Shown: piece after piece, positions 33,049 through 48,929 of the stretch
Numbering within the stretch: position 1 is the stretch's first letter
Layout: each line of letters begins with the position of its first letter
Assembly (NCBI GenBank): GCA_009729775.1
Contig: GCA_009729775.1_4081.1
Strand: one strand, 5' to 3'
Length of the DNA stretch: 64,000 nt
From: Escherichia coli
GTDB taxonomy: Bacteria > Pseudomonadota > Gammaproteobacteria > Enterobacterales > Enterobacteriaceae
Translations under genes and position numbers: made by a program
Notes under the pieces: model-generated
Seen by the model: only the letters and a program-made list of their open reading frames with translations
Database searches by the model: none
Told to the model about the DNA's origin: nothing

Positions 33049-33239
33049 TAACATTTTATTCGTAATACCCCTTTATCGAAGTCGCTAAGGTTACCCGCCC
33101 TTTAGCCCCCTACGCATTTTGCCATAGTCCAATCCCTTTTATTTCAAAAAAGTCAAGGGATTACCTATGCATTTTTTTAACGCATAATTTTAAAAACGCC
33201 TTGACTTTTTTCTGAATCAGTACTAGATCCCTTTACGCA

Positions 33240-33449
33240 TTAATCCTTCGTTACGCTAACGATTATCTGTGTATCCCCGTAGTCCTGCCATACTTCCACG
33301 CCATCCGTCGCCCTGGTTAGTCGTGCTGTCATCTGCTTAACAGTCTTAGGCTTTAGTGGAACCTGTTGCAGTACTGTACGCATAGCATCACTGACGTTAT
33401 CATGTACGCCAGCAATAGTACCTAGAACGCTGTATACTGTATAGAACAT
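33240..33449 (-). CDS. hypothetical protein
   Basis: 69 aa ORF. Confidence 0.5.
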   Translation of the reverse strand: MFYTVYSVLGTIAGVHDNVSDAMRTVLQQVPLKPKTVKQMTARLTRATDGVEVWQDYGDTQIIVSVTKD

Positions 33450-33517
33450 ATGTATGCCCTCCTGATATAGTTAAGGCCGCTAGAGAGCGGCCTATGATGT
33501 TTGGTGATGTGTAATGC

Positions 33518-33919
33518 TTATAGTCCTAAGATAGTGCGTGCTTCGTTACGTTCCGTCCATAGCTGCATGATGTGAGCAAGTAAGTCCTTACTAATGTATC
33601 CGGTGTTCATAGCTTCACGGATAGATACATCATAAGCACCGAACCCCGTGCGAACGATACGCACATCATTTAGGTTAGTGTTATAGATACCGCCAAGATC
33701 AACGGCTTCGAATACTGCATCAACTGAATACTCATTGTTACCATCGTTGAAGTTTTCTAGTGCAATAGTATTGGATACCGCCCAACGTTTGCAGTTTCCA
33801 ATGATGCGGCATTGTTCCGGTTGGAGAGTGCCATTACTTACAGCGTACTCCAGTGCATCTTTACCAAAAGTCCGAGCCAGTACTAAAACGTCAGCGAAGG
33901 AAGTGATTGAGAAGGTCAT
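33518..33919 (-). CDS. hypothetical protein
   Basis: start at MTFSITSF with GGAG RBS; track MVLP extension is translation of 5' hairpin. Confidence 0.6.
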   Translation of the reverse strand: MTFSITSFADVLVLARTFGKDALEYAVSNGTLQPEQCRIIGNCKRWAVSNTIALENFNDGNNEYSVDAVFEAVDLGGIYNTNLNDVRIVRTGFGAYDVSIREAMNTGYISKDLLAHIMQLWTERNEARTILGL

Positions 33920-33939
33920 GATAAAACTCCTTAATTTAG

Positions 33940-34010
33940 GAGGGAGAACCATTTCCCCCTCTCTATGTAAAACATTATACTTGATTCTAAGTACTATGCA
34001 AGTACTTTTT
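33940..34010 (-). promoter_or_regulatory. early promoter cassette: TTGCAT-16-TATAAT followed by GC-rich 5' hairpin
   Basis: reverse complement reads TTGCAT..TATAAT then GGGGGAAATGGTTCTCCC stem-loop then RBS. Confidence 0.55.
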
Positions 34011-34335
34011 ACATTTTAATACCTGGATTCAGGTAGCGGTGAGATCCGTATTCTGGATCTGTTTCGGTCCAGTACTGTAAATCTATAGTACCCTTTGCGT
34101 TAATCTTGTCTACTAGCTTATTCATCTTAGTGTAGACTACTTCGCTAGGGATGTAGTGTAATCCTTTATTATAGAAGTAGTGGTTAGCTTCACTATCGTT
34201 TAAGATATAGCGTGCACCGTTTGCGGTTTGTGCAACAATGAAAGAGTATTCTACTTCCCGATCATTACCATCAACAGTAATGCGGTCGAAATTGGTACGG
34301 ATGAAAGCTTTAACGATAGCGATTGAAGTACTCAT
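34009..34335 (-). CDS. hypothetical protein
   Basis: 108 aa ORF. Confidence 0.55.
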   Translation of the reverse strand: MSTSIAIVKAFIRTNFDRITVDGNDREVEYSFIVAQTANGARYILNDSEANHYFYNKGLHYIPSEVVYTKMNKLVDKINAKGTIDLQYWTETDPEYGSHRYLNPGIKM

Positions 34336-34469
34336 GGTGAATCTCCTAACTTTGTGGGCCGTCGCACCATTGCCGCCCTACGAGATACATTATTGCAGTA
34401 CTGATATACTTTGTCAATACTTTTTTTGAAATAGTTTTGAGTACTGGAATTACATCCACCAGCAGATAG

Positions 34470-34590
34470 TTACTCACCGTTATGAACTATCTTACAGATA
34501 CTTCTCTGCACCCTGTGGGCTAGTTTTTGTCTATGCGTATATAATAGCAAAGGGACTGACCGGAGTCAATCCCTTTTTTTATTCTTTTTT
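34470..34590. repeat. repeated intergenic composite element (GCACCCTGTGGGCTAG core and AAGGGACTGACCGGAGTCAATCCCTTTTTT hairpin)
   Basis: near-identical copies at about 36390-36510, 39760-39870, 43790-43920. Confidence 0.6.
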
Positions 34591-34591
34591 G

Positions 34592-34792
34592 TTAGATGAT
34601 TCTCCAATCTTCTACCAGGATTTTAATATACCGTACCAGTGATTCGAGTGATTCCACTTCCCGATAATCGGTAGCCGTTTGCACGGAACAAGTACAGCCG
34701 ATCAAGCCATTGCCAAGCTCTTTGATCTGTACATCGATGCAGTTGGCTTTTGCTTCATTCAGTACTGCAACCAATTCGTTAGCGATTGACAT
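34592..34792 (-). CDS. hypothetical protein
   Basis: 66 aa ORF with upstream promoter cassette. Confidence 0.5.
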   Translation of the reverse strand: MSIANELVAVLNEAKANCIDVQIKELGNGLIGCTCSVQTATDYREVESLESLVRYIKILVEDWRII

Positions 34793-34810
34793 AATGTTTT
34801 ACTCCTAAAG

Positions 34811-34875
34811 GTGCGGGAGAACTATTCCCCCGCTCTATGTAAAACATTATACATTATCTTGTAGTACTGTCAAAT
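34811..34875 (-). promoter_or_regulatory. early promoter cassette (TTGACA-16-TATAAT) and 5' hairpin
   Basis: reverse complement of intergenic region. Confidence 0.55.
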
Positions 34876-34880
34876 AGTTT

Positions 34881-35138
34881 TTATGAGATATCTTCGATAT
34901 AGTCGGCCCATGTCATTTGTTCAGTACTATCGAGTGCACCAGGATTATTTGGATCAAACCATTCGCCATCCCCTAAGTACATTGCAGCGGATACCGCTTT
35001 ATAGCCATTATAGGCGTTATTCCACTGCATAGCACGATAGATATGGCCTTTAATTGGTGTTAGTACTGGTAACGTTTTATGGTCTTCTACGTAGGCTGTA
35101 GCGATTGGATTTACCCGATACGTTTTGAACTGTTCCAT
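34881..35138 (-). CDS. hypothetical protein
   Basis: 85 aa ORF. Confidence 0.5.
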   Translation of the reverse strand: MEQFKTYRVNPIATAYVEDHKTLPVLTPIKGHIYRAMQWNNAYNGYKAVSAAMYLGDGEWFDPNNPGALDSTEQMTWADYIEDIS

Positions 35139-35212
35139 GATGTTTCCCCTTTAGTTAGTAAAGTTAATACAACAGTACTATCACGCATTGTCAATAGTAC
35201 TGAAATAAAACT

Positions 35213-35437
35213 TTAGATTAGATTATTGATGCCGTTGATGGTAGACTCGCTTTCTTCTTTCTCCCATTGGCGGTAATACTTCCATGCTTCATGATAGGTG
35301 GCGATCAGTTCATCTTTTTGATCCTGAGTACATGCCAGTACTGAATCACTGTAAGCGGTGTTATAGATAGAATCAAATGATTTCTTCTCTTCTGCCAGGG
35401 TAGCTACTTCCCGCATCAGTTCATCAAAGTTAGCCAT
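35213..35437 (-). CDS. hypothetical protein
   Basis: start at MANFDELM; track extension covers 5' hairpin. Confidence 0.55.
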   Translation of the reverse strand: MANFDELMREVATLAEEKKSFDSIYNTAYSDSVLACTQDQKDELIATYHEAWKYYRQWEKEESESTINGINNLI

Positions 35438-35454
35438 TTTAGTACTCCTTATTA

Positions 35455-35520
35455 GTGGGGGAGGATATCTCCCCCTATGCAAAACATTATACTTTGTTTT
35501 ACTTACAATGCAAGTACTTT
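35455..35520 (-). promoter_or_regulatory. early promoter cassette (TTGCAT-16-TATAAT) and hairpin GGGGGAG-atat-CCTCCCCC
   Basis: reverse complement of intergenic region. Confidence 0.55.
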
Positions 35521-35712
35521 TTAAATTTTATTTCCGATATAGTCCGGCCTGTTCTTTTCGGTCATACGCTTAAGCATTTTTTGCATATGGCTTATTGCTT
35601 GTAGTGTATCCTCTTCCAGCGATGAATCAAGATAATCAGGATCATTCTTCACCTTACAATGATTATGATAGCGTAGTACTGCCAGTACTTTTTTAACTTC
35701 TTCAACTGTCAT
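35521..35712 (-). CDS. hypothetical protein
   Basis: 63 aa ORF. Confidence 0.45.
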   Translation of the reverse strand: MTVEEVKKVLAVLRYHNHCKVKNDPDYLDSSLEEDTLQAISHMQKMLKRMTEKNRPDYIGNKI

Positions 35713-35981
35713 AATAAGTATTCCACTTCGTTTGCTTTCAGGTTAGTATCAATCATCAGTGGCTTTTTGTAGTCCACAAAACGATTAGTTTTTTCGATAG
35801 CGAAGCCCATATAATCCAGCTTGCTTACCGTGCATTCATTCTTAAAAACTTCTTTCGCTGCATTGATGGCTGATTGCAATGTTAACCGACCATCTAAGTT
35901 AATGTTTCCAAATGATCCACCAGCAGAAGTAGGATTACCGTTCATATCTTTAATGATCATAGTTGCGGAGTAGCTAGACAT
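35709..35981 (-). CDS. hypothetical protein
   Basis: 90 aa ORF. Confidence 0.55.
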   Translation of the reverse strand: MSSYSATMIIKDMNGNPTSAGGSFGNINLDGRLTLQSAINAAKEVFKNECTVSKLDYMGFAIEKTNRFVDYKKPLMIDTNLKANEVEYLL

Positions 35982-36002
35982 AATTTTGTTTCCTTTTAGT
36001 AT

Positions 36003-36062
36003 CGGGGAGAACTATTCTCCCCTTGATGTAAACTATTATACAGTACTGATATACTTTGTCAA
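36003..36062 (-). promoter_or_regulatory. early promoter cassette (TTGACA-16-TATAAT) and hairpin GGGGAGAA-tagt-TCTCCCC
   Basis: reverse complement of intergenic region. Confidence 0.55.
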
Positions 36063-36065
36063 TAC

Positions 36066-36287
36066 TTAATTACGTTTAAAATGATATGTACCTTTATCAT
36101 CCTGTACGCCCCATACTGATTTACCATCAACGCCAGTGAAGCCGGATTGCAATTCAATATGGAAACCATTATTATCAACTACAAAAACTTTTTTATTTTC
36201 ATCCCGATAACATTGATATTCTGAATCAACATTAAAGGCCGCATCATTCAGAAGATTGGAAGCGTAAATGCAAGTCATTGTAGTCAT
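36066..36287 (-). CDS. hypothetical protein
   Basis: start at MTTMTCIY; track MVLP extension is hairpin. Confidence 0.55.
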   Translation of the reverse strand: MTTMTCIYASNLLNDAAFNVDSEYQCYRDENKKVFVVDNNGFHIELQSGFTGVDGKSVWGVQDDKGTYHFKRN

Positions 36288-36389
36288 GATTTTATTCCTT
36301 ATTCTTTGAGGGAGAACCATTTCCCCCTCTCGATATAAAACATTATACTTGATTCTAAGTACAATGCAAGTACTTTTTTAAAAATAGTT

Positions 36390-36510
36390 TTCAGTACTGA
36401 ATACTTATATAATAGATACACTTCCGCACCCTATGGGTCAGTGAGTTATCTCTCAATGAATATATAATAGCAAAGGGACTGACTGGAGTCAATCCCTTTT
36501 TTAATCTTTT
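36390..36510. repeat. repeated intergenic composite element, copy 2
   Basis: as above. Confidence 0.6.
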
Positions 36511-37095
36511 TTATCGTGTTATAGTTATCGCGTTAACATCACGTTTTTTATAGTACTGATTCCAGATATTGCGGGTTAAACCGTAATCAAGTACTTTAAT
36601 CAAGCCGTTGCGATCCTGGCCGATATTCTGTTTTCTGATATCTCTTATCGTTAGTGTGGATAATGTATCATCAACGTGATTGAGAGCATCAGCGAAATGG
36701 TGATGGCGTTCAATAGTGTTACGTTTAATATTGTACTTTAACTCATTACATGCGGTTACGTGCTTTACACTGCCTTTGCTTGCAGTACTCAAACGATCCA
36801 TAACAATAAACAGATTATCAGGATCGCATAAATGCATATGCACCTTGGCAAAGAACTGTTTAAGGTGCGGACGGTCATAATCTAAAAAATTCCATACCTT
36901 ACATTCAGTTTCATTTTGTTCTACACCCGCATCACAATTCGCGACCTTAATCACTAACCGATCATTTAAAGCGAATACAATACGGGAAGAACCCGCACCG
37001 ACGATCTCCAGTCCAGCTAACCGACAAGCTGAAAGGATCTCTTTGTTGGTTTCCATTGCATGAAGTGAACGGATGAATTTAGTATAGTTACGCAT
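36511..37095 (-). CDS. putative protein kinase-like protein
   Basis: Gly-rich loop GAGSSRIV, VIKV lysine, IRDIRKQN (HRD-like), DYG (DFG-like); start at MRNYTKF with GGAG RBS. Confidence 0.45.
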   Translation of the reverse strand: MRNYTKFIRSLHAMETNKEILSACRLAGLEIVGAGSSRIVFALNDRLVIKVANCDAGVEQNETECKVWNFLDYDRPHLKQFFAKVHMHLCDPDNLFIVMDRLSTASKGSVKHVTACNELKYNIKRNTIERHHHFADALNHVDDTLSTLTIRDIRKQNIGQDRNGLIKVLDYGLTRNIWNQYYKKRDVNAITITR

Positions 37096-37126
37096 TGTGT
37101 TGACTCCTTGAGTTAATGAAACTATA

Positions 37127-37369
37127 TTACAGTACTTTACTATCAATGGCAACTACTTTTTTTACTTGAACTGCGTGGAATACTTCACGCGTATTTTTAG
37201 TACTGAATACTTTTGCCGTACCTTGTTCGACCGCAATACGATAGCGACCGTTAACGTCCACCATGTTGATAAAGTCCGGTGTACTGAATGGAGTTACCCG
37301 GCATTTAAGAACGGTTAACAGTTCCACCAGCGTGGTAGTCTCTTTGATACGTTTTTCTAAAGTAATCAT
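37127..37369 (-). CDS. hypothetical protein
   Basis: start at MITLEKRIKE downstream of TTGACA-17-TACTAT. Confidence 0.5.
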   Translation of the reverse strand: MITLEKRIKETTTLVELLTVLKCRVTPFSTPDFINMVDVNGRYRIAVEQGTAKVFSTKNTREVFHAVQVKKVVAIDSKVL

Positions 37370-37426
37370 TTTGTTTTCCCCGTGTTGGTATGCATTCATA
37401 GTACTAAAACATTTGAGTACTGTCAA

Positions 37427-37645
37427 TTAGATAATAGAATATTTCTTTAGTGATAATGCGTCTTCTGTCGGTTGATATTCTACACCGTTCCCGTTATCAA
37501 CCTTAGTGAGTAAACCTTTATCAATGAGTTTTTTGATGGTACGGTTTCCCTGTTGAAAACTAGTGAAGTGTGAATCATTACGAAAGGTATAACCGTGCTT
37601 CACTGCTTCATCAATAGTTTTCTTTTCGATTTTAGATAATTTCAT
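37427..37645 (-). CDS. hypothetical protein
   Basis: 72 aa ORF. Confidence 0.5.
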   Translation of the reverse strand: MKLSKIEKKTIDEAVKHGYTFRNDSHFTSFQQGNRTIKKLIDKGLLTKVDNGNGVEYQPTEDALSLKKYSII

Positions 37646-37703
37646 TTTGTTTCTCTCTCTCTGTGTTGGTATAGATACATAATACTAAAACATTTGAGTA
37701 CTG

Positions 37704-37958
37704 TCAACGTGATATTAGTTTTATTTTTTTATTGTATTGTTGGTGTTCATATAGATTAATTTTTCCAGTACTCTCGATCACTATTCTATTGTTAGTGTCT
37801 ACATCGATAACACGTAGTTTCCCGTTGCTTAACTTCCTAGGCAATAGACTACCATTAATAAACTCATTAGCAAGCTGTACGGCCTTTGTGATGATTCTCT
37901 GTGGTGCTTTATAGTGTACCCGCAAGATATTATCTTTAGATAGTTGTACCTTCATCAT
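37704..37958 (-). CDS. hypothetical protein
   Basis: 84 aa basic ORF. Confidence 0.5.
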   Translation of the reverse strand: MMKVQLSKDNILRVHYKAPQRIITKAVQLANEFINGSLLPRKLSNGKLRVIDVDTNNRIVIESTGKINLYEHQQYNKKIKLISR

Positions 37959-37973
37959 TTTAGTTTATCCTAT

Positions 37974-37998
37974 AAAAAAGGCGGGAACTGAACCCGCC
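37974..37998 (-). terminator. rho-independent terminator
   Basis: GGCGGG-aactgaa-CCCGCC hairpin followed by U-tract on minus strand, after stop of 38022..38426. Confidence 0.55.
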
Positions 37999-38021
37999 GT
38001 GTTGTTAGTACTGCAAAGTTA

Positions 38022-38417
38022 TTAGATAACCTGGCGGCGTTTACTGTATACTGTTACACGGTTTCCTTTACGGTCATGACGGATCTCTTTCTGGTTACGA
38101 ATCAGTTCACTTGGACGCTTAAGGTTTGCCAGGTGATCCGCGTGAGTCCATGCATTACTATTCACTTGTACTTGAATATCAGAACCTTCCAAGAAGTCAT
38201 CTTGAGCGTTCAGTACTTCAGCCAGTTCTTGAGCTTTCTTCAGTTCTGCTTCAGTAAGTACTGGTTCAGGTGAATTCACAATATCAGAGATCTCTTTGAA
38301 CTGTACCGCCCAGCGTTGTCCTTTCGGTGCATCTTTGCCCATGTCTTTAAATGTTTCACCTTCTTCACGGGCAACGATGCGAGCTTGTTCACGGGTAGCG
38401 AAGAATTTAGTAATCAT
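38022..38417 (-). CDS. hypothetical protein, paralog of 50213..50479
   Basis: shared FATREQARIVAREEGETFKDMG and HDRKGNRVTVYS segments. Confidence 0.6.
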   Translation of the reverse strand: MITKFFATREQARIVAREEGETFKDMGKDAPKGQRWAVQFKEISDIVNSPEPVLTEAELKKAQELAEVLNAQDDFLEGSDIQVQVNSNAWTHADHLANLKRPSELIRNQKEIRHDRKGNRVTVYSKRRQVI

Positions 38418-38516
38418 GGTGTACATCCTATTAGTTAAGTTAATTAGTACTACAAGTTAGAGTCTATTATAAAGTACTATCTGGGTAATGTCAAATAGTA
38501 CTTTAAATGGATTCTA

Positions 38517-38840
38517 TTACATGTCTTTCTTACGTTTTACATCGTAGTAACGAACTGTAATTTCTTTGTTGATCTCTTCCTCAATTCTGTGTAGTACTTT
38601 CTCTTTCGGGTTGAAACCTATTACAGTTTCTTTAATGATCTCCAAGCCCGTGTATTCGCCTTGTGTACCGTAACCGTAAGTAAAGGTTTCATGTCCCAGG
38701 TCTTCCCAGCGGTCACCAATCAATGCAGACACGTAGCATGAGTGGTAAGTATTGCCGTGGCTATCAGTCCACCGATTAACTTTAATGTCAAAGGAAGTTA
38801 CAATTTTCATTTCTACTTTCTGGGTAAGGATCATAGCCAT
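38517..38840 (-). CDS. hypothetical protein, paralog of 45141..45485
   Basis: shared GNTY, YGYG and C-terminal VKRKKD motifs. Confidence 0.6.
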   Translation of the reverse strand: MAMILTQKVEMKIVTSFDIKVNRWTDSHGNTYHSCYVSALIGDRWEDLGHETFTYGYGTQGEYTGLEIIKETVIGFNPKEKVLHRIEEEINKEITVRYYDVKRKKDM

Positions 38841-38861
38841 TTTAATTTCTCTCTTTTAGTT

Positions 38862-38927
38862 AGGAGGGGAACCATTCCCCTGCCTTGATGTAAACTATTA
38901 TACAGTACTAAGATACTTTGTCAATAC
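38862..38927 (-). promoter_or_regulatory. early promoter cassette (TTGACA..TATAAT) and 5' hairpin
   Basis: reverse complement of intergenic region. Confidence 0.5.
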
Positions 38928-39129
38928 TTATTTGTTTTCTTTTCGTAATTTCTTTTCAGCTTCAACTACATTCTTATTTGTGCAAACTACTTCATCGGAT
39001 AAATCTAACTTCCATCCAGACAGGGGTTTGGTTTGTTTCTTTGCTGCTTTGTTCGCTTTCATGATGTTTCCTTTTTAATTAAGATGTAAACTATTATACA
39101 GTACTAAGATACTTTGTCAATCTATTTTA

Positions 39130-39330
39130 TTAGATAGTTTCCCATTTCATGTTACCCGCTTTACGCTGTGAAACAGGAATAAACATGTTATTAATGTTAC
39201 TAATATAACCGACCTGTAAGTCACGCTGTGAACCATATGCCCGACTTGCTGCATTTTTAGCACCGCGTTCTGATTTATAAACGCCGCTGGATACTGTAAA
39301 GCCTACTACACCGAAAGTAAAATGTTTCAT
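39130..39330 (-). CDS. hypothetical protein
   Basis: 66 aa ORF; two tandem promoters upstream. Confidence 0.5.
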   Translation of the reverse strand: MKHFTFGVVGFTVSSGVYKSERGAKNAASRAYGSQRDLQVGYISNINNMFIPVSQRKAGNMKWETI

Positions 39331-39524
39331 TTTGTATTCCTCTTTGTGGTTGATGTAAGTATTATACTCGTTTACTTTCTATTGTCAATCTTTTTTATCA
39401 GGGGAGTTTTTCGTATGTCTTACTCCTGGACTACTTAACGGGGTTACTTGTTTCGTTCCCCGTCCTGATGTAAAACATTATACTTGATTCTAAGTACAAT
39501 GCAAGTACTTTTTAAAAATAGTTT

Positions 39525-39689
39525 TCACTTACTCATATTAACAGGCTTAAACGGTGGCAATGTAAGATCATGCGGGGTTAAACTGTCATGCTTTGCCCAC
39601 ATACCAGAATCCCTACGGAATAATACCTTATTGTTTTTTATACGATAAAAGTTACCATTATCAGTGTTTTTATACCATACCATTTTCAT
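39525..39689 (-). CDS. hypothetical small protein (not in ORF track, below 60 aa)
   Basis: 54 aa ORF MKMVWYKNTDNG... with TTGCAA-16-TATAAT and GGAG RBS upstream. Confidence 0.4.
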   Translation of the reverse strand: MKMVWYKNTDNGNFYRIKNNKVLFRRDSGMWAKHDSLTPHDLTLPPFKPVNMSK

Positions 39690-39759
39690 TTACTCCTGGT
39701 TATGTCGTTATTAAACATTATACGGGGTTATAGATAGTTTGCAATTAGTTTTTCAGTAC

Positions 39760-39870
39760 TAGCCACCAGCATATAATAGATACATTTATGCACCCTGTGG
39801 GCTGATTTGTTTCTATGCGTATATAATAGCAAAGGGACTGACCGGAGTCAATCCCTTTTTTAATTCTTTT
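39760..39870. repeat. repeated intergenic composite element, copy 3
   Basis: as above. Confidence 0.6.
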
Positions 39871-40019
39871 TAAACTTGTTTTGGGTTGCGATATGTGATA
39901 GCGTTCGGGTACATTTGTTTAATGTTATTCCATGCCTGGTTAACATTGTAACCACTTGAGCGAATCAGTTGGTTACTACCGACACCTTGAAACACTACTT
40001 CGAATAAGAATTCTTTCAT
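39870..40019 (-). CDS. hypothetical small protein (below track cutoff)
   Basis: about 49 aa ORF MKEFLFEVVFQG...; ATGA overlap with upstream ORF. Confidence 0.3.
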   Translation of the reverse strand: MKEFLFEVVFQGVGSNQLIRSSGYNVNQAWNNIKQMYPNAITYRNPKQV

Positions 40020-40189
40020 GCTTTCACCTCGCGATCTGCTTTACCTTTACGCCACGCTGTTGCTAATTGTTCGCGTTGCCATAAGTCGAGTGATACGTAA
40101 AGTTTTGCATTATCACCCTTCGGATACTCGCCAGTAGTACCAATCCGATAAAACAGATCTTTCAGTACTGATAATTCCACCTGGATCAT
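40016..40189 (-). CDS. hypothetical small protein (below track cutoff)
   Basis: about 57 aa ORF MIQVELSVLKDL... Confidence 0.3.
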   Translation of the reverse strand: MIQVELSVLKDLFYRIGTTGEYPKGDNAKLYVSLDLWQREQLATAWRKGKADREVKA

Positions 40190-40297
40190 TGTATTACTCC
40201 TGATTGTGTTAGTACTTCTACGATGGCATGAATGATCATAAGTACAGCTAACACAACAATCATCGGATTCATTTGCATAAGCTGTACTCCTTATATA

Positions 40298-40510
40298 TTA
40301 ATCTTTCAGCCAATGATCTTGAATGAATTTTTCACAGAATCCCTGTTTCATAGATTCTAACAGGCGTTCACGGTGAGCGGCGGCATATTGCTCAGTACTA
40401 TGCGTTACGCCAGGTTGATAACGTGAAACACCGTCTGGTCCGATATATTGAACATCCCACGGTTTTTCGTTAGTATCAGACCATTTACGAACGATTAGTT
40501 GACCTTGCAT
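40298..40510 (-). CDS. hypothetical protein
   Basis: 70 aa ORF with promoter cassette and AGAGGA RBS. Confidence 0.55.
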   Translation of the reverse strand: MQGQLIVRKWSDTNEKPWDVQYIGPDGVSRYQPGVTHSTEQYAAAHRERLLESMKQGFCEKFIQDHWLKD

Positions 40511-40527
40511 GTTTCTTTCCTCTTAGT

Positions 40528-40587
40528 GGGGAGAATCATTTCTCCCCTTCATGTAACTTATTATACAGTACTAGATTACATTGTCAA
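40528..40587 (-). promoter_or_regulatory. early promoter cassette (TTGACA-16-TATAAT) and hairpin GGGGAGAA-tcat-TTCTCCCC
   Basis: -35 at 40582-40587, -10 at 40560-40565, hairpin 40528-40547 (coordinates on plus strand). Confidence 0.6.
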
Positions 40588-40593
40588 TAGTTT

Positions 40594-40917
40594 TTATTCA
40601 CCTTGTTTGAATATAGTTTTCTCCATTGATTCCATGATTGCAACCAATACAGCATGGATCTCACTTAACGCGGCATCACTAAAAGCATTAATGAATAGGC
40701 AATCATTCTCGCGAATATTTTTAATGTACTTATCAGCAGTGGTTGCGAATTCATTCAACGGCAGATCAAATGCTTTATCCCATAATGGATGGCGTAACTG
40801 TAACAGTACTGGATTATCACGGTCACCAGGTGAGAAAGTGCCTGTAATGAAACATACACCAGGGATACTTTCGAATTGACAACGAACTTCTTTTGTGATA
40901 GTAGTATGAATATACAT
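40594..40917 (-). CDS. hypothetical protein
   Basis: 107 aa ORF. Confidence 0.55.
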   Translation of the reverse strand: MYIHTTITKEVRCQFESIPGVCFITGTFSPGDRDNPVLLQLRHPLWDKAFDLPLNEFATTADKYIKNIRENDCLFINAFSDAALSEIHAVLVAIMESMEKTIFKQGE

Positions 40918-40944
40918 TTATTTTTATCCTCTATTAAATTAATA

Positions 40945-41133
40945 TTACAGTTTATGAATCAATTCTTTATCCAAGCGATAGCGAACATTATTGATTGTAA
41001 CTGCATTGTTTTTAATGCTACGCTGTACAGGTCCACCAGCAATAACAAACGTTGCCTTATTGCCCCGAACGATGATAGCACTTCCAGGATTACCGAAATC
41101 ATCTTGTACTAAAATGCTTGATAAGTTTTGCAT
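40945..41133 (-). CDS. hypothetical protein
   Basis: 62 aa ORF. Confidence 0.45.
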   Translation of the reverse strand: MQNLSSILVQDDFGNPGSAIIVRGNKATFVIAGGPVQRSIKNNAVTINNVRYRLDKELIHKL

Positions 41134-41149
41134 TTGTCTTTCCTTGTAG

Positions 41150-41208
41150 TGGGGAGAACTATTCTCCCCTTCATGTAAACAATTATACAGTACTGAAAAC
41201 TAATTGCA
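41150..41208 (-). promoter_or_regulatory. early promoter cassette (TTGCAA..TATAAT) and hairpin
   Basis: reverse complement of intergenic region. Confidence 0.5.
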
Positions 41209-41212
41209 AGTA

Positions 41213-41569
41213 CTATGATAAAATCATTATAGGATATTCACTATCAATCAGTACTTCAAAACCAAAACTTTCATACCATTCTTTAAGATTAAATGAGTTA
41301 TCTTCTCCCGTATCGCATTCTAAGATGATACAATCTGAATCATCGGCCGCATCAATAAAGGCATTCATTAATTCAGTACCTTCACCGTTACCGCGATTAT
41401 CGGGATCAACATAAAGAGAATCAATAAACGCTACACGATCATAATCAAGATCTGGTGCAACAATGCCACGTTTAACAAACCAGTACTGCAATTGTGCTAC
41501 TTTGCCTTGTACTTGATAGCCAGTGATCTCACCATTGTCTGTAGTACGCGTGATATGTTGTATACCCAT
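41213..41569 (-). CDS. possible GNAT-like acetyltransferase (weak)
   Basis: segment VAFIDSLYVDPDNRGNGEGTELMNAFIDAA resembles GNAT acetyl-CoA binding motif. Confidence 0.35.
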   Translation of the reverse strand: MGIQHITRTTDNGEITGYQVQGKVAQLQYWFVKRGIVAPDLDYDRVAFIDSLYVDPDNRGNGEGTELMNAFIDAADDSDCIILECDTGEDNSFNLKEWYESFGFEVLIDSEYPIMILS

Positions 41570-41632
41570 GATTTCAATCCTCAGTTAAGATATAAAATAT
41601 TATACACTAACTAACAGTACTGTCAATACTTT

Positions 41633-41890
41633 TTATCTCATAGATCTATGCCAACAATTACGCGGTTGACGTTTAAAAATACTATCATGATCCTCCTGGC
41701 AAGTTATGCAGTACTTACATCCCTTAACGGCCTGGCGACGTTTCTCAGGGATTATATCACCGCAGTCGAGGCAATGTATCAGTGATTCTATTTGTGCGTT
41801 AATTTGCGTTCTAGCGTGGTTAACAGCGGCCTGAATCACTGCGTTAATCTCGTCTTGCTCGGCCCCATCTTTCGTGAATCCTACAGCCAT
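41633..41890 (-). CDS. TraR/DksA-family C4 zinc-finger protein
   Basis: CLDC-x17-CITCQ (C-x2-C-x17-C-x2-C) signature in 85 aa protein. Confidence 0.6.
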   Translation of the reverse strand: MAVGFTKDGAEQDEINAVIQAAVNHARTQINAQIESLIHCLDCGDIIPEKRRQAVKGCKYCITCQEDHDSIFKRQPRNCWHRSMR

Positions 41891-42119
41891 TATTTTAACC
41901 TCATTATAAAAATACTATAGTACTGTAATGCGACAATAATATTACTTGTTCTTACTTTTTCCAATCCACATGATACAACATATTCATCCCCATATGTTCG
42001 AAACGAAACACCATGAAAATTTTTATACACTTGCACTTCTAATCATAACCTTTTGTCTAACCAACTGCGTAGAATTATACTACTTTACGCAAATTGATCA
42101 AGTATTGATCAGATCATTT

Positions 42120-42200
42120 TTTGATCAATATTATACAGTTACATTTGTGCACCCTATGGGTTAGTGCCTTGTGTCCGGCTTATGTACTTATTATACAGTA
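42120..42200. repeat. variant element with GCACCCTATGGG core and CCGGCTT hairpin
   Basis: similar to 50110-50200. Confidence 0.4.
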
Positions 42201-42221
42201 CTTGATGATATTGTCAATAGT

Positions 42222-42419
42222 TTATTTTAATTTTTTTCTGTCATTGATTAATGCTTTCAGTACTATACTAATAACTTGCAATGATTCATCAATGACTATA
42301 AAATTATTTTCTTTCATTAGATGATAGTTACCATTGATTGTATATTCTAATGAGTACTGTTTACGTTTAATTTTTGATAATGTATCAATTTGTTTTTGTA
42401 CTGATTTCATGCTAATCAT
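42222..42419 (-). CDS. hypothetical protein
   Basis: 65 aa ORF. Confidence 0.45.
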   Translation of the reverse strand: MISMKSVQKQIDTLSKIKRKQYSLEYTINGNYHLMKENNFIVIDESLQVISIVLKALINDRKKLK

Positions 42420-42526
42420 TGTTAAACGTCCTGTAATGCATTCTAACGAGATAAACGGTTTAGTACTGGCATTGTATAGGGTAAATGATTAAAGCCCACC
42501 AGCGTTAACCAGTGGGCTATAATCTT

Positions 42527-42670
42527 ACATCTTGCGGATAATCTTAACAGTATCTTTCACCGATTTACCGTCTTGCTGACATTGTTCGATCATCGCGTAT
42601 TGTTCTGCGGTCAGATCCTCGCCAGTTTTTGCCAGTACTGCGTCGATGAATGAATCCAGTGCGATCATTT
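42527..42670 (-). CDS. hypothetical small protein (below track cutoff)
   Basis: 47 aa ORF MIALDSFIDAVLAK... Confidence 0.3.
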
Positions 42671-42767
42671 TATTTCTCTCTTAGGTTAAGTTAACTACTG
42701 TTGATAAAAGTTATTATACAGTACTATCAAACATTGTCAATAGATTTAATAGTACTGGTAATATATT

Positions 42768-42947
42768 TTAGCGGTAATCGTCGTATGCTTTATTAACCTG
42801 GCGAATGTAACTTTCAAAGGCTTCGTCTACCGTTTCATACTCCCGAACATAATCACCATAGGAAACTACATACATCCCTTTTTGATCTTCAAACGTCATG
42901 ATGATAGAATCCAGTCCGATGATTTCAGTTTTTGCGATAATAGCCAT
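42768..42947 (-). CDS. hypothetical protein
   Basis: start at MAIIAKTEI; repeated promoter cassette upstream. Confidence 0.5.
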   Translation of the reverse strand: MAIIAKTEIIGLDSIIMTFEDQKGMYVVSYGDYVREYETVDEAFESYIRQVNKAYDDYR

Positions 42948-43038
42948 TTTAGTATTCCTTAAATTAATATGCGTTGTCTTGATAAAAGTTATTATGCCAG
43001 TACTATCAAACGTTGTCAATAGTACTGTGATAATATTT

Positions 43039-43251
43039 TTAGTTAATGATAGTCAGTGTAAAATTGTAATCCCCTGCCTGGTATAGTACTTTATCGCCGA
43101 ACGTGCCAACACGTTTCATATTGCAATAGATACCCATAACATTTTTTACATCTTTGATATTCCGAACGCCAGTGATATCCTTGTTGAAATTTTCATGATC
43201 AGAAAATAAAACTTGTTTTGCATTTTTCAGTACAGTGCAGATATTAGCCAT
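43039..43251 (-). CDS. hypothetical protein
   Basis: 70 aa ORF. Confidence 0.5.
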   Translation of the reverse strand: MANICTVLKNAKQVLFSDHENFNKDITGVRNIKDVKNVMGIYCNMKRVGTFGDKVLYQAGDYNFTLTIIN

Positions 43252-43270
43252 TTCGATTTCTCTCTGTTAG

Positions 43271-43338
43271 TAGGGAAGTACTGTTACTTCCCGTGCCTTG
43301 ATGTAAACTATTATACAGTACTATAATCTATTGTCAAA
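43271..43338 (-). promoter_or_regulatory. early promoter cassette (TTGACA-16-TATAAT) and hairpin GGGAAGTA-acag-TACTTCCC
   Basis: reverse complement of intergenic region. Confidence 0.5.
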
Positions 43339-43351
43339 CTATTTTTTAATA

Positions 43352-43693
43352 TTATTCAAAATCTTCTGGACCGGACTGATAATCATCCTCACCGTATGCA
43401 CTTTCTAACTTCTCGCCAGTGTAATCATCAGTTAGTGAGTCATCCTCATAGTTCACGTCTACGCCCGTGATGTAAAACTGGCTATCGTCTGGATCATTGA
43501 AATTAATTTTCTGAATGTTTACAATAACTGTATTGATACCCAGGACACAGCCATCAGCCGTTACAAAGTACTGATATTTTTCACATCCACCACTATTGAA
43601 ACCGTAATTGATTTCGGCCCGACCATCATTTAAACGCAGTGCCTGAGCGATGATTTCGTTTTCAAAGTTAGATTGAGCAATTGCAATAGTCAT
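43352..43693 (-). CDS. hypothetical acidic protein
   Basis: 113 aa ORF. Confidence 0.55.
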   Translation of the reverse strand: MTIAIAQSNFENEIIAQALRLNDGRAEINYGFNSGGCEKYQYFVTADGCVLGINTVIVNIQKINFNDPDDSQFYITGVDVNYEDDSLTDDYTGEKLESAYGEDDYQSGPEDFE

Positions 43694-43789
43694 GATTCGT
43701 TTCCTTATTACCAGGGGAAACCGTTTCCCCTTGCGATGTAAAACATTATACGCCTATTGATATAGTTTGCAAGTACTTTTTATCAAATA

Positions 43790-43920
43790 CTTTAAAATAG
43801 TTTTCAGTACTCAATCATTATACAATAGATACACTTATGCACCCTGTGGGCTAGTGAGCTATCTCTCAATGAATACATAATAGCAAAATGGCTGACCGAA
43901 GTCAACCACTTTTTTTCATT
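43790..43920. repeat. repeated intergenic composite element, copy 4 (more diverged hairpin)
   Basis: as above. Confidence 0.5.
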
Positions 43921-44054
43921 TATTTTTAGCTTTTAGAATCGCCGCCTTTCGCGTCATGCCTTGCTTGATGTACTCCTTTACTTTCGCTTTACGTGCTTTC
44001 GCTTTATCTGCTTTCGTTTTAGGAGTACTGTAAATTAAACCGTTAGGATTCATT
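43917..44054 (-). CDS. hypothetical small basic protein (below track cutoff)
   Basis: 45 aa Lys-rich ORF MNPNGLIYSTPKTKADKAKARKAK... Confidence 0.3.
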
Positions 44055-44139
44055 TAAATCACCATAAAGAATAGATAGGTTACTAACAATGCCGCCAGTA
44101 CTGCACCGACCAGGGCCGAACTATAGTAAGCTAATGATT

Positions 44140-44292
44140 TCATTTTTTAGCCTGAAAGTAATGTTTAATTTGTGCGGCGGTCAGTGCACAATTACGCAGG
44201 AAGTTTTCTGTATAACTTTTACGAGTACTGAAAGAGTACTGACCTTTCCCGTTACCGATAGTAACATCAAACCGAGCGTTATATTGTTTCAT
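44140..44292 (-). CDS. hypothetical small protein
   Basis: start at MKQYNARFD; track MVLP extension is hairpin. Confidence 0.45.
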   Translation of the reverse strand: MKQYNARFDVTIGNGKGQYSFSTRKSYTENFLRNCALTAAQIKHYFQAKK

Positions 44293-44309
44293 TTTGTTTC
44301 TCCTAGTAT

Positions 44310-44382
44310 CGGGGAGAACCATTCCCCCCCTCTATGTAAACAATTATACAGTACTGAAAACTAATTGCAAGTACTTTCTAAG
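44310..44382 (-). promoter_or_regulatory. early promoter cassette (TTGCAA..TATAAT) and 5' hairpin
   Basis: reverse complement of intergenic region. Confidence 0.5.
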
Positions 44383-44567
44383 TAATGTTTATAAGCTGAA
44401 TCAACCACTCTTTCGATAACATACGCTAACGGCACGTATCCAACTACATGACTACAATAAAAAGGACTACGATTAGAATCATCGTATGCAAATACTTTTT
44501 CAGGATCTGCATCAATCACATACATATTAACCTTTAAGATGTCTATCTTATCCTGTACAGTAAGCAT
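44361..44567 (-). CDS. hypothetical protein
   Basis: start at MLTVQDK; upstream part of track ORF overlaps another small ORF in a different frame. Confidence 0.45.
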   Translation of the reverse strand: MLTVQDKIDILKVNMYVIDADPEKVFAYDDSNRSPFYCSHVVGYVPLAYVIERVVDSAYKHYLESTCN

Positions 44568-44571
44568 ATTA

Positions 44572-44742
44572 CGCCGCCTTATCAGTACTGGCAACCGGAC
44601 GGATACGGGCCATTTCATGGGCTTGTTCCACACTGTAACGCTCATAAAGGCGGCATTCTTCCGGTGTAGGAACAGCATCAATACGTTTCATTGGTTTAAT
44701 GATGCTTTCAACTTCATTCAGTACTTGATTAACGTTCATGGT
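44572..44742 (-). CDS. hypothetical small protein (below track cutoff)
   Basis: 56 aa ORF MNVNQVLNEVES..., stop 2 nt before next ATG. Confidence 0.35.
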
Positions 44743-44790
44743 ATAATCCCCAATATAAGCGGCCTAAATCGACCGCTAACGATGTTTTGA

Positions 44791-45060
44791 TTAATAGGTG
44801 TATGGTTGACGCTCAAACAATGATTGCACGTTGTACGCCCCGCTAATGGGCTTTGCTGGCAAATCAATTTTATATTGTTCACGCTTAAAAATAATAAAAC
44901 GGCAATTGTTTTTAACATCAAAATTGATTGAACGTTCCAATAGCTTTCCTTCGTGTACAAATACAAGATAACCGCTTGCTACTTGTTTTGTAGTACTGGT
45001 TGCAACCATTGACCGACGAACATGAGTACCTGCATCGATTAAAGTACTGATATTTTTCAT
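44791..45060 (-). CDS. hypothetical protein
   Basis: 89 aa ORF. Confidence 0.5.
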   Translation of the reverse strand: MKNISTLIDAGTHVRRSMVATSTTKQVASGYLVFVHEGKLLERSINFDVKNNCRFIIFKREQYKIDLPAKPISGAYNVQSLFERQPYTY

Positions 45061-45140
45061 TTTACTATCCTCTTAATTTGATTTAATTTCTTTCCCCTAT
45101 GCAGACACTATATCAAAGTATCTGCATAAAGTAAAGCTAA

Positions 45141-45485
45141 TTAAAGATCTTTTTTGCGTTTAACATCAGTTACCGAACTGTAAACAGTGATATTATTGTC
45201 ACGGCAAAAACGGGAAAGATAAGAACCGCGTAAAAACTCTTTATCTTCCATATTAATAACCTTGCTAAATTCTTCCATTGCTACAGTGTCAAAGTGATCC
45301 CCGTATCCATATTGGAACGGCACGTTTACTACTTCAATAAAATTACCATCAATTTCTACGTCTACACTTAAAGAGAAATAAGTGTTACCATATGAAGCCT
45401 GGAACCAACGCCGAGCGGCAATATGTACAACTTCAACAGAAGACAGGTTGATATTTTGTGCTGAGATAGTGTTGATGTTAGCCAT
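45141..45485 (-). CDS. hypothetical protein, paralog of 38517..38840
   Basis: shared motifs, C-terminal VKRKKDL. Confidence 0.6.
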   Translation of the reverse strand: MANINTISAQNINLSSVEVVHIAARRWFQASYGNTYFSLSVDVEIDGNFIEVVNVPFQYGYGDHFDTVAMEEFSKVINMEDKEFLRGSYLSRFCRDNNITVYSSVTDVKRKKDL

Positions 45486-45566
45486 TTTAATTTCCTCTTA
45501 GTTGTCTTGATAAAATCTATTATGCCAGTACTATCAAACTATGTCAATAGTACTGTGATAATAATT

Positions 45567-45779
45567 TTACTTACTTTGCTTTGATGCTTTATGTTGTGCA
45601 ACTGCCATCACTACATCAGCACGAACAAAGTTAGCAACCGTATCAGTATAATATTTGATTGCATCGTCAATATCTGCGAACATCCGATACATTCCGCACC
45701 ATGATACTTTATAACCCGCTTTCACTTGTTCCAGTTTAACCAGTGAATTGTTTACTTTGATTTTTGTAATGATAGCCAT
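45567..45779 (-). CDS. hypothetical protein
   Basis: 70 aa ORF, N-terminus MAIITK similar to 42768..42947. Confidence 0.5.
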   Translation of the reverse strand: MAIITKIKVNNSLVKLEQVKAGYKVSWCGMYRMFADIDDAIKYYTDTVANFVRADVVMAVAQHKASKQSK

Positions 45780-45862
45780 TTTTGTTTCCTCTTAGTTGTC
45801 TTGATAAAATCTATTATGCCAGTACTATCAATCTATGTCAATAGTACTGTGATAATAATTTT

Positions 45863-46006
45863 ACTTACTTTTTGCTTTCTTTATTGCTTCCACCTGGTCG
45901 GCCCACTCTTTACCCCATACTTGAGCGTTATAGTGATACTGACAAAGAGCAACGCCCCGTTTCAAACCAGTGATAGATTTTTTACCACATTGACAAGTTT
46001 TCATTT
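45863..46006 (-). CDS. hypothetical small Cys-containing protein (below track cutoff)
   Basis: 47 aa ORF MKTCQCGKKS...CQYH with its own promoter-hairpin cassette and RBS. Confidence 0.4.
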
Positions 46007-46020
46007 TTAGTTTCCTCTTA

Positions 46021-46086
46021 GTGGGGAGAATCATTTCTCCCCTTGATGTAATGTATTATACTTTATCCGATTTACTTTGCAAGTAC
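46021..46086 (-). promoter_or_regulatory. early promoter cassette (TTGCAA..TATAAT) and hairpin GGGGAGAA-tcat-TTCTCCCC
   Basis: reverse complement of intergenic region. Confidence 0.5.
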
Positions 46087-46089
46087 TTT

Positions 46090-46317
46090 TTAGTTTAATT
46101 CATCCAGGCATAAGATACGATCTACGCCGAGATCCGTTAAGCTAATGGTTGGCACTTGATAGGTTTCAATGTATTCTACACTAGCCCACTGACCGAACTC
46201 ATTCACCGCCCAGGTATTCATTGCAAAATGTAATTCCGCACCTTTCTTATTAGTAATTACAGCAACAGTAGAAGAATTGCCAGTAGTACCAGATACGCGA
46301 GTGATTACGATAGCCAT
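46090..46317 (-). CDS. hypothetical protein
   Basis: 75 aa ORF. Confidence 0.5.
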   Translation of the reverse strand: MAIVITRVSGTTGNSSTVAVITNKKGAELHFAMNTWAVNEFGQWASVEYIETYQVPTISLTDLGVDRILCLDELN

Positions 46318-46750
46318 TGTTTTGATTCCTATTCAGTAGTTGATGTATGTATTATGTCAGTACTTAAAACTATTGTCAAACTATTTTTTAAAGACTATCT
46401 ACGATAGCTGCCGTTTCAATAATAGACTTACCTTTTTTTGAACATGCAATAACTGCTTTAAATTCCTTTGATGACCATTCTTTTTTACTGCATACTAACA
46501 TTACTTGCATAGTGAAACAATCCAGTTCATAAGTATTCATCTTTAAATCCTCAGTTAGTTAAGGTGTCTTGCCTTGATGTAACTAATTATACGCCTTTCT
46601 CTTAATCGTGCAAGTACTTTTTATTACTTTTTGCAAAATACTTTAAACGCTCTCAATCGCATTCTAACGGCCTTAACTCCACCAGCTAGGGCGATGCATC
46701 AGATAATCAGTTTAATGCGTTAGAATCGATTCTATGAGGTGCTGACGGTC

Positions 46751-46786
46751 TGGAATGCAATAAAAACAAAAAAGCCCACTGCTTAT
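46751..46786 (-). terminator. rho-independent terminator
   Basis: AGCCCAC-N8-GTGGGCT hairpin with long U-tract on minus strand after stop of 46816..47313. Confidence 0.6.
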
Positions 46787-46815
46787 AGTGGGCTAGTGAT
46801 TCAGTACTTTAAATG

Positions 46816-47298
46816 TTATGCTTCAATTTTGCGGTGAGATTCGATCCATTCCTCGCGAGTCATACCGCTTTCTTTGATAGCATCCAGTACTACCGCAATG
46901 CAGTTACCGCGTACAGGAATCAAATGTTCTTCCCCGTTATCAAGGACAACCGTAACACGTTCTTGAATCCATTTTTTAGGCTTAGATTCCGGCTTATCTT
47001 CACCGTACTTAACCGCCAGGGCTTTATGTGCCATTTCAATAACCACTTCCAGATCTAAACCAGACACCGCCGCCTGAATACTTTCTATTGTTGCTTGCAG
47101 TTCTGCTTCACGGGCTTTTTTCTGTTCTTCCAGTTCTGCTACCTTTTTGGCTTGTAGTTCTTTCGCTTCACTGTAAGCAATGTTAAAATTGTTGCGTACT
47201 GCTTTCATGGTATCATTATCCAGGTCAGCCAGCAATTCAGCAGCAATCACAGTATCGTTAGAAATCAGTGCTTTCAGAAATGATTTTACATTAGCCAT
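46816..47298 (-). CDS. hypothetical protein, predicted coiled-coil
   Basis: start at MANVKSFLK; Ala/Glu/Lys-rich heptad-like segment. Confidence 0.55.
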   Translation of the reverse strand: MANVKSFLKALISNDTVIAAELLADLDNDTMKAVRNNFNIAYSEAKELQAKKVAELEEQKKAREAELQATIESIQAAVSGLDLEVVIEMAHKALAVKYGEDKPESKPKKWIQERVTVVLDNGEEHLIPVRGNCIAVVLDAIKESGMTREEWIESHRKIEA

Positions 47299-47482
47299 TT
47301 TATAAATCCTCAATTAAAGTTTAAGTTAGTTTATCAAAGTTTGTTTGACGTGTCCAGTTTTTCATTCGACTTACTGGCGGTCTACTTAATGTTCCCCGTC
47401 TTGATGTAATACATTCTACGCTTTTCCCTGGTAATGTCAACTACTTTTTTAAAACTATTTTCAAAGTATACCAGTACTACGA

Positions 47483-47520
47483 TAATACAAAAACAAAAAA
47501 GCCCACTGTTTAAGGTGGGC
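47483..47520 (-). terminator. rho-independent terminator
   Basis: GCCCAC-N8-GTGGGC hairpin with U-tract on minus strand after stop of 47539..47838. Confidence 0.6.
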
Positions 47521-47538
47521 TAGTGATTCAGTACTAGA

Positions 47539-47838
47539 TTATAAACAGTTAATTACTCCGGTGTGCGTTACTTTCTCAGTATCCATCACAGTGACCGAAC
47601 CGCGTTTAGTACTGGCATCATAATAAATTGTTGTGCTACCGTTTTTGTCTTCTTCATGGAACGGGCCGTTTTTAAATGCTTCCGGCTGGATCTCTAAATC
47701 CTTTAATACAATCTCGCCAGTTCTTTCATCGGTCATTGCAACAGTGCACTGAATGAATTTTTCACTACTTACATCTAATGACGCATTAACAGCGAAAGAG
47801 GAAACAGATAAAGCCAGGGCGATGATTGCAATTTTCAT
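47539..47838 (-). CDS. secreted protein with N-terminal signal peptide
   Basis: MKIAIIALALSVSSFAVNA signal-like N-terminus. Confidence 0.55.
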   Translation of the reverse strand: MKIAIIALALSVSSFAVNASLDVSSEKFIQCTVAMTDERTGEIVLKDLEIQPEAFKNGPFHEEDKNGSTTIYYDASTKRGSVTVMDTEKVTHTGVINCL

Positions 47839-47922
47839 TTGATTATCCTTAGTTACCAGGGGGAACCGCTCCCCCTTGCTATGTAAAATATTATACAGTA
47901 CTAAAAACTAATTGCAAGTACT

Positions 47923-48159: not shown

Positions 48160-48266
48160 TTTCTTATTCCTTAGTTACCAGGGGAACCGCTCCCCTATGC
48201 AAAACATTATACGCGTTTAAAAACTATTGTCTAGTATTTTAATAAAAAGTATTTGAAAAATAGTTG

Positions 48267-48396: not shown

Positions 48397-48399
48397 GTA

Positions 48400-48912: not shown

Positions 48913-48929
48913 TATATAATCCTTAGTAC

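Follow-up and report, generated by a model that had tools for sequence, protein, structure and literature searches.

T7K, the gp0.7 kinase of phage T7, has been established by experiment as a promiscuous Ser/Thr/Tyr kinase that phosphorylates the greater part of the host proteome and disarms defense systems, retrons among them, and the family to which it belongs is typified by a DPV motif in place of DFG and, in its Autographiviridae members, by a C-terminal shut-off domain (PMC13645617). The survey of this family used hidden Markov models (HMMs) of PHROG 2828, and matches in jumbo phages were reported in Munch and G17 (PMC13645617). Here we describe a different kinase-like family, PHROG 4301 (listed under 'unknown function'), which Munch and G17 carry as well, starting from one of its members encoded on the minus strand of a 64,000-nucleotide stretch of DNA (the window; contig GCA_009729775.1_4081.1, deposited as Escherichia coli). 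The window comes from an Asteriusvirus, i.e. a jumbo coliphage of the 121Q type: between positions 35500 and 38500 it shares 95% identity with Escherichia phage 121Q and 90-94% with about 30 other Asteriusvirus jumbo coliphages (~350 kb). The encoded protein of 194 residues is very probably an ATP-using enzyme of the protein-kinase-like (PKL) fold.

Among described systems T7K provides the best functional analogy for this protein. In both, the kinase-like domain is short and breaks off about 20 residues past the aspartate corresponding to that of DFG, both are encoded near the putative first-entering end of the genome in the company of host-type promoters, and PF07714 is the best Pfam model for both. 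In contrast to T7K, the present protein has DYG rather than DPV and no shut-off domain. For the early proteins encoded beside it, the depletion of Ser, Thr and Tyr, a signature of T7K-bearing phages, was marginal. The protein matches neither of the T7K groups, phrog_2828 and phrog_15752, at E<=1, and given the lack of a match to the PHROG 2828 HMMs the T7K survey would probably not have recovered its family. An hhalign comparison of the family with the T7K-type protein gp144 of phage Sharanji yields a probability of 0.5%; as judged from sequence, PHROG 4301 is not detectably homologous to T7K beyond the generic kinase core. Gp144 itself (224 residues; OR545507.1 66182-66856, L004 28183-28857) matches phrog_15752 (E 1e-97) and phrog_2828 (6.9e-16), and is encoded about 46 kb from gp063, the Sharanji ortholog of the present gene, in a part of the genome outside the window. 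It likewise terminates about 20 residues past its DFG-equivalent aspartate, and thus a design that ends soon after this motif recurs in two unrelated families of phage kinases.

The bare kinase assignment is already on record, in the form of a few GenBank labels and one sentence in one paper (PMC11895373). The label 'putative protein kinase' is attached to the orthologs from Turkey5, Turkey3, fEgEco12, Munch, fENko-Kae01 and the RefSeq record of K64-1, and the description of Sharanji calls WNN14351.1 'another protein kinase' of unknown function and WNN14432.1 a T7K homolog (PMC11895373). A literature search recovered no published activity assay for any member of the family, and protein kinases are not discussed in the jumbo-phage comparative paper. 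New relative to the literature searched are the structural and profile support for the assignment, the minimal architecture, the GSSR/QNxxE signature, the size of the family, its restriction to phages and its independence from T7K, as well as the tandem arrays and fusions described below.

Predicted fold and catalytic core

The earlier note on this DNA had recognized the protein as kinase-like and had proposed structure prediction and profile searches, with a protein lacking both a kinase fold and a profile match as the outcome that would speak against it; both were found. A template-free AlphaFold2 model computed with 57 sequences (predicted local distance difference test score, pLDDT, 93.6; predicted template-modeling score, pTM, 0.88) displays a bilobal kinase-like fold. 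It supersedes a first model based on 10 close homologs, in which the N-lobe was well modeled and residues 104-194 had a pLDDT below 50, and whose Foldseek matches rested on the N-lobe alone. Foldseek searches of PDB with the 57-sequence model returned 67 matches at E<1e-3, including PknA/B, MEK1, OSR1, PRPK/Bud32, IRAK4, APH(2''), Lpg2603 of Legionella and the minimal kinase domain of NleH2, along with the related SAICAR synthetase fold. In this model two family-specific helices (residues 4-12 and 17-26) precede an N-lobe comprised of beta1 (30-34), the Gly-rich loop, beta2 (38-42), beta3 (47-52) and helix C (55-73). Helix C is followed by a short helix (76-81), a pre-hinge strand (96-100) and two further helices (108-120 and 129-145), whereupon the C-terminal part is formed by the D152...N157 loop, the strands 158-160 and 166-168, D170-Y-G and a closing helix (175-193).

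The motifs on which the kinase-like assignment had been based, namely GAGSSRIV (33-40), VIKV with K50, IRDIRKQN (150-157) and DYG (170-172), are all present in the 194-residue open reading frame (ORF), and each occupies its canonical place in the modeled fold. The Gly-rich loop aligns with GKGSFG of DYRK2; K50, located in the strand 47-52, and E64, located in the helix 55-73, align to the canonical kinase residues; D152-IRKQ-N157 aligns to HRDIKPSN of MKK4; and DYG aligns to the DFG of MKK4, CTR1 and PKC, after which only 22 residues remain to the C-terminus. Across 202 domain instances from the family R38, K50, E64, D170 and G172 are invariant, and Q60, N61, G57 and G159 are more than 97% conserved, with G35 being retained in 188 of 195 family copies. 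N157 is invariant among close relatives, and its position is occupied by H, N, S or Q across the wider family. The family has neither a conserved His/Arg of the HRD motif nor a conserved lysine in the catalytic loop, and the invariant R38 may take over the contact with the gamma-phosphate that would be made by this lysine.

Sequence searches of PDB with phmmer returned 79 matches at E<10, and the matches listed, 60 in number, are all protein kinases, with alignments that pair RDIRKQN with HRDIKPSN and DYG with DFG. With a profile of the 10 close homologs the best E-value improves to 8.5e-5, and a profile of the 57 diverse relatives recovers 121 PDB kinase sequences at E<=0.01, the best being MKK4 (6.6e-6), followed by DYRK2 and PAK (each about 1e-4). 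The alignments of the latter profile run unbroken from the Gly-rich loop past DFG and place every motif on its canonical partner. Given this continuous alignment and the invariance of the catalytic residues, the caution in the earlier note that the assignment rests on short motifs only no longer applies. The kinase assignment is qualified by the scores of the curated models: the single protein matches only PF07714 (E 5.8e-4) and PF00069 (E 2.1e-3) in Pfam, in both cases below the gathering score (19.7 versus 23.1 bits and 17.9 versus 31.7 bits, respectively), and its relatives score still lower on the Pfam kinase models. A Pfam scan of ten distant members found no Pfam family covering them, some distant members having a weak below-threshold match to the ABC1/UbiB model that is limited to the catalytic loop, and an NCBIfam scan gave nothing useful for the family. 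Kinase models from PADLOC (e.g. PD-T4-6) show weak partial matches extending from the catalytic loop to DFG (best E 0.0015, 16 bits); at the sequence level these appear to be generic kinase similarity and no sign of membership in a defense system, and the distant members gave no matches to PADLOC.

The two Pfam alignments break off at profile positions 152/263 and 164/258, and the protein has no activation segment, no P+1/APE motif and no helices F-I (helix F and the GHI subdomain). It is for this reason a minimal, truncated kinase and not a canonical Hanks-type domain. A split gene with the C-lobe encoded downstream was considered and rejected: the gene is set apart from the following ORF by a hairpin and a promoter, that ORF falls into an unrelated PHROG, and the family as a whole stops at the same point. 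With the Hanks-type kinases (PF00069/PF07714; MKK4, DYRK2, PAK and PknB) the protein shares all core motifs in canonical order, the best profile matches and, in the model, the fold of the N-lobe and catalytic core; it differs from them in its sub-threshold scores, in the absence of the elements just mentioned and in the possession of its own invariants, GSSR and QNxxE. The NleH/OspG, SteC, Rio and Bud32/PRPK kinases also lack the activation loop and GHI subdomain. However, they show no family-level sequence relationship to the present protein and score no better than ordinary protein kinases, they lack the N-terminal helices and C-terminal helix specific to PHROG 4301, and they are found in bacterial pathogens or universally in cells rather than in phages.

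Size, spread and multiplication of the family

The protein matches the PHROG 4301 profile with an E-value of 1.6e-42 (residues 1-190 on profile positions 11-185 of 225), and distant metagenomic relatives also match it, with E-values of 1e-18 to 1e-20. A word-indexed search recovered only 11 relatives. An exhaustive HMM search of metagenomic clusters (50% identity) identified at least 1,756 representatives at E<=1e-3, of which 137 also passed E<=1e-10. Canonical solved kinases score at most about 26 bits on the family profile, below the estimated ~35 bits corresponding to E=1e-3 (57-58 bits at E=1e-10), and hence these clusters should represent true members of the family and not generic kinases. 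Most members are 160-300 residues long and end just past DYG...YY.

In annotated phage genomes the family was found in 60 records, all of them RaK2/121Q-type jumbo phages, with hosts belonging to Escherichia, Klebsiella, Salmonella, Yersinia, Erwinia, Pectobacterium and Xanthomonas. Its distant members occur on phage-like metagenomic contigs, and no conserved gene neighbor was found around them. A scan with two peptide patterns, which is not a census, located 2 metagenome-assembled genome contigs among 185,579 GTDB species genomes and 7 IMG/VR contigs. Multiplied versions of the domain were also observed: on a 54-kb phage contig four adjacent paralogous mini-kinase genes lie beside tail-sheath genes (L010 880-4163), and on a further metagenomic contig a single protein of 923 residues consists of four complete tandem copies of the mini-kinase (L005 204-2975). 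Other representatives contain 3-6 matched stretches, and the catalytic residues are kept in the copies.

The gene, its neighborhood and its genomic setting

Within the Asteriusviruses the gene is the ortholog of 121Q gp308, with 99.5% amino-acid identity and one nucleotide different; further orthologs are Sharanji gp063 (WNN14351.1) and Turkey5 XMR01560.1. It is under purifying selection (dN/dS 0.04-0.18). The mechanical list of ORFs places its start at a TTG (37152), whereas the annotations of all relatives begin at the ATG corresponding to 37095 (585 nucleotides). The gap between the upstream ortholog of 121Q gp307 and the kinase-like gene is 31 nucleotides long and contains no predicted terminator; the two are probably co-transcribed, and the nearest upstream sigma-70-like promoter would drive the pair (Table 1). 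No paralog of the kinase-like gene was found elsewhere in the window, and among the ten neighboring genes a single ParE-like domain is the only hint of function. The latter is found in an 84-residue ORF two genes upstream (37707-37958, minus strand), which matches the toxin domain PF24732 with an E-value of 3e-10 (40.4 bits against a threshold of 24.4) and belongs to PHROG 1525 ('unknown function').

Table 1. Coordinates of the kinase-like gene, its motifs and the surrounding elements in the window
Feature	Position	Strand	Remarks
Minimal protein-kinase-like coding sequence	36511..37095	-	194 aa, 22.4 kDa, pI 9.2, PHROG 4301
Gly-rich loop G33-A-G-S-S-R38	36982..36999	-	between beta1 and beta2; family signature GxGSSR
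K50, beta3 'VAIK' lysine	36946..36948	-	invariant, 196/196 domain copies
E64, helix-C glutamate	36904..36906	-	invariant, 196/196; in signature G-x-x-Q60-N61-x-x-E64
Catalytic loop D152-I-R-K-Q-N157	36625..36642	-	D152 185/191 in family
D170-Y-G172, DFG equivalent	36580..36588	-	D 192/192, G 190/190
Shine-Dalgarno AAGGAG	37104..37109	-	8 nt upstream of ATG 37095; read from sequence
80-aa ORF, ortholog of 121Q gp307	37127..37369	-	directly upstream of kinase-like gene
Sigma-70-like promoter TTGACA-17-TACTAT	37398..37426	-	10/12 match; nearest upstream of the gp307-kinase pair
Hairpin element AAAGGGATTGACTCCAGTCAGTCCCTTTGCTATTATAT	36462..36499	-	begins 12 nt past the stop codon of the kinase-like gene
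Direct terminal repeat-equivalent region	33090..52911	-	matches vB_Ec-M-J record 1-21525; boundary ~33090 interpolated

The hairpin element downstream of the gene combines a terminator-like stem with -35/-10-like hexamers for the next gene. It is one of three minus-strand copies of a 38-nucleotide element (34539-34576, 36462-36499 and 39821-39858; none expected by chance) with the common sequence AAAGGGATTGACTCCrGTCAGTCCCTTTGCTATTATAT. Its 12-bp hairpin contains, in the 5' arm, a TTGACT hexamer resembling a -35 box, with TATTAT following at the spacing of a -10 box; the element resembles a terminator and a promoter in one, punctuating the early region.

The gene lies in the part of the window equivalent to the direct terminal repeat (DTR) of related phages. 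In the vB_Ec-M-J record the DTR spans 1-21,525 and the kinase ortholog 16,690-17,274. The DTR of fENko-Kae01 spans 1-19,736 (PMC11218385), and the ortholog (16,233-16,823) again lies inside it. Phage records that include both repeats contain the gene twice. BLAST places the left end of vB_Ec-M-J at position 52,911 of the window and the end of its DTR at about 33,090; the physical end thus lies some 16 kb away from the kinase-like gene, which is transcribed inward. Since the left physical end of vB_Ec-M-J maps to position 52911, the window itself seems to read across the genome terminus, as would be seen in a collapsed or permuted assembly.

Perfect TTGACA-N16/17-TATAAT sites number 14 across the window, where 0.15 would be expected, and every one is on the minus strand; 13 of these fall within 34846-52547, the remaining one being at 25416-25444. 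Most of the 14 share the extended sequence AGTACTGTATAAT, which suggests a phage-specific consensus for early promoters with an extra conserved block upstream of the -10 box. The DTR-equivalent region contains small, widely spaced genes and is presumed to be the early region. The placement of the gene 'among early genes' in the earlier note accords with its position inside the DTR of the relatives, in the stretch that holds 13 of the 14 perfect sigma-70 promoters on its own strand, the timing being deduced from this position. Early transcription by the host RNA polymerase is well motivated by the DTR-equivalent, promoter-rich location, and early expression of the kinase-like gene is accordingly considered likely on positional grounds. 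A search for literature on the timing of transcription in phAPEC6 or the Asteriusviruses produced nothing usable and no transcriptome.

Outside this region the window contains several sets of paralogous genes. One set comprises 22 genes encoding proteins of about 70-90 residues, all but one of which form a head-to-tail array (27717-33020, minus strand) that directly adjoins the DTR-equivalent region and in which most stop and start codons overlap, the remaining gene being at 12694-12885. A second family comprises eight minus-strand genes for proteins of about 150-165 residues (7709-16978), and a third, seven plus-strand genes for proteins mostly of 360-450 residues (56118-64000). In Sharanji one gene of the plus-strand run equivalent to the latter is annotated as an RCC1-repeat protein.

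Proposed function and competing explanations

From a conserved, real gene, a kinase-like fold, a complete and invariant catalytic set, a truncated architecture and a promoter-rich, DTR-equivalent location we infer catalytic activity, protein substrates, early timing and a biological role of the following kind. The sigma-70 RNA polymerase of the host would transcribe the gene from the terminal-repeat region, possibly the first DNA to enter the cell, soon after infection. The N-lobe, with its Gly-rich loop, K50 and E64 of helix C, would combine with D152...N157 and a Mg-binding DYG to form an ATP-using phosphotransferase core. The probable targets of this core are proteins of the host, perhaps also of the phage, which would be modified on Ser/Thr and possibly Tyr in the service of host takeover or counter-defense, a strategy like that of T7 gp0.7 executed by an unrelated family. 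Catalysis is favored because the catalytic set is complete and strictly conserved. Regulation by phosphorylation is disfavored, given that there is no activation loop and no conserved HRD arginine, and the absence of the activation loop, the P+1/APE motif and helices F-I leads one to expect constitutive activity with little built-in selectivity for substrates. Low intrinsic selectivity, a property shown for T7K, is also suggested by the absence of the substrate-binding elements. With moderate confidence we thus favor the reading of the protein as an early protein kinase that is constitutively active and has host, perhaps also phage, proteins as its targets.

A PKL-fold enzyme could alternatively be a small-molecule kinase in the style of the APH, choline, MTR or Kdo kinases, with a metabolite, nucleotide, signaling molecule, sugar or lipid as its target; for instance, it might neutralize an immune signal of the host or modify a precursor. 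The structural matches to APH and SAICAR synthetase are in keeping with such an activity. A large helical C-terminal subdomain serves to bind the substrate in small-molecule kinases of this fold, and this is absent from the present protein, whose structural likeness to APH(2'') is confined to the shared core: the Foldseek alignments with APH have a full-length root-mean-square deviation of 13-18 A, only the N-lobe and core being fitted. In place of the histidine in the H-x-D-x4-N motif of the APH and choline kinases it has Ile150, two positions before D152. Moreover, the significant profile matches are only to protein kinases (MKK4, DYRK2, PAK and PknB), the Pfam models for APH, choline kinase and Kdo kinase are not matched even at E<=10, and other minimal kinases devoid of these elements, such as T7K, NleH, Rio and Bud32, act on proteins (PMC13645617). 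A small-molecule kinase is accordingly regarded as unlikely.

Less probable still is a kinase fold that does not transfer phosphate to a substrate, be it an ATP-binding pseudokinase, a scaffold, an ATPase (an activity proposed for UbiB/COQ8) or another nucleotide-dependent transferase that performs AMPylation (SelO) or glutamylation (SidJ). The invariant R38 and the conserved Q60-N61 have no canonical role and hint at a non-standard geometry of nucleotide binding, many relatives in the family have H, S or Q instead of the catalytic asparagine, and some members have the weak ABC1/UbiB matches mentioned above. These matches are, however, sub-threshold and restricted to the catalytic loop, and positive evidence for a flipped binding of the nucleotide was not found. 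Pseudokinases usually lack at least one canonical catalytic residue, whereas K50, E64, D152, N157 and D170 are all present in this protein, N157 being invariant among its close relatives. Finally, a chance resemblance of motifs in an unrelated small phage protein, for which the shortness of the motifs and the single-sequence Pfam scores below the curated thresholds might be cited, is effectively refuted by the confident template-free model, by the canonical order and spacing of the motifs within one continuous profile alignment, and by their exact coincidence with the columns found invariant in the family, which comprises at least 1,756 clusters.

Returning to the favored protein kinase, a wider and more tentative proposal, which we consider rather less likely to hold in full, is that PHROG 4301 represents a very large, hitherto undescribed phage-specific family with some of the smallest functional protein kinases known (a core of about 170 residues with the pattern GxGSSR...QNxxE...D...DYG). 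Under this proposal its members would have arisen independently of T7K, would act early in many large phages as promiscuous, constitutive kinases of host takeover or counter-defense, and would have diversified through tandem arrays and 4- to 6-fold fusions.

The published work that established phage kinases as broad weapons of counter-defense covered the T7K family only (PMC13645617), and with PHROG 4301 the jumbo phages concerned are seen to carry another kinase-like family, unrelated to T7K. Should its members turn out to act on a small molecule, or to perform a chemistry other than that of a kinase, this would be more novel still. If they are active protein kinases, an explanation would be at hand for one early gene among the hundreds that lack annotation in therapeutic jumbo coliphages, a very small kinase scaffold free of an activation loop would become available for structural and engineering work, and the known repertoire of phage-driven phosphorylation of the host would be widened.
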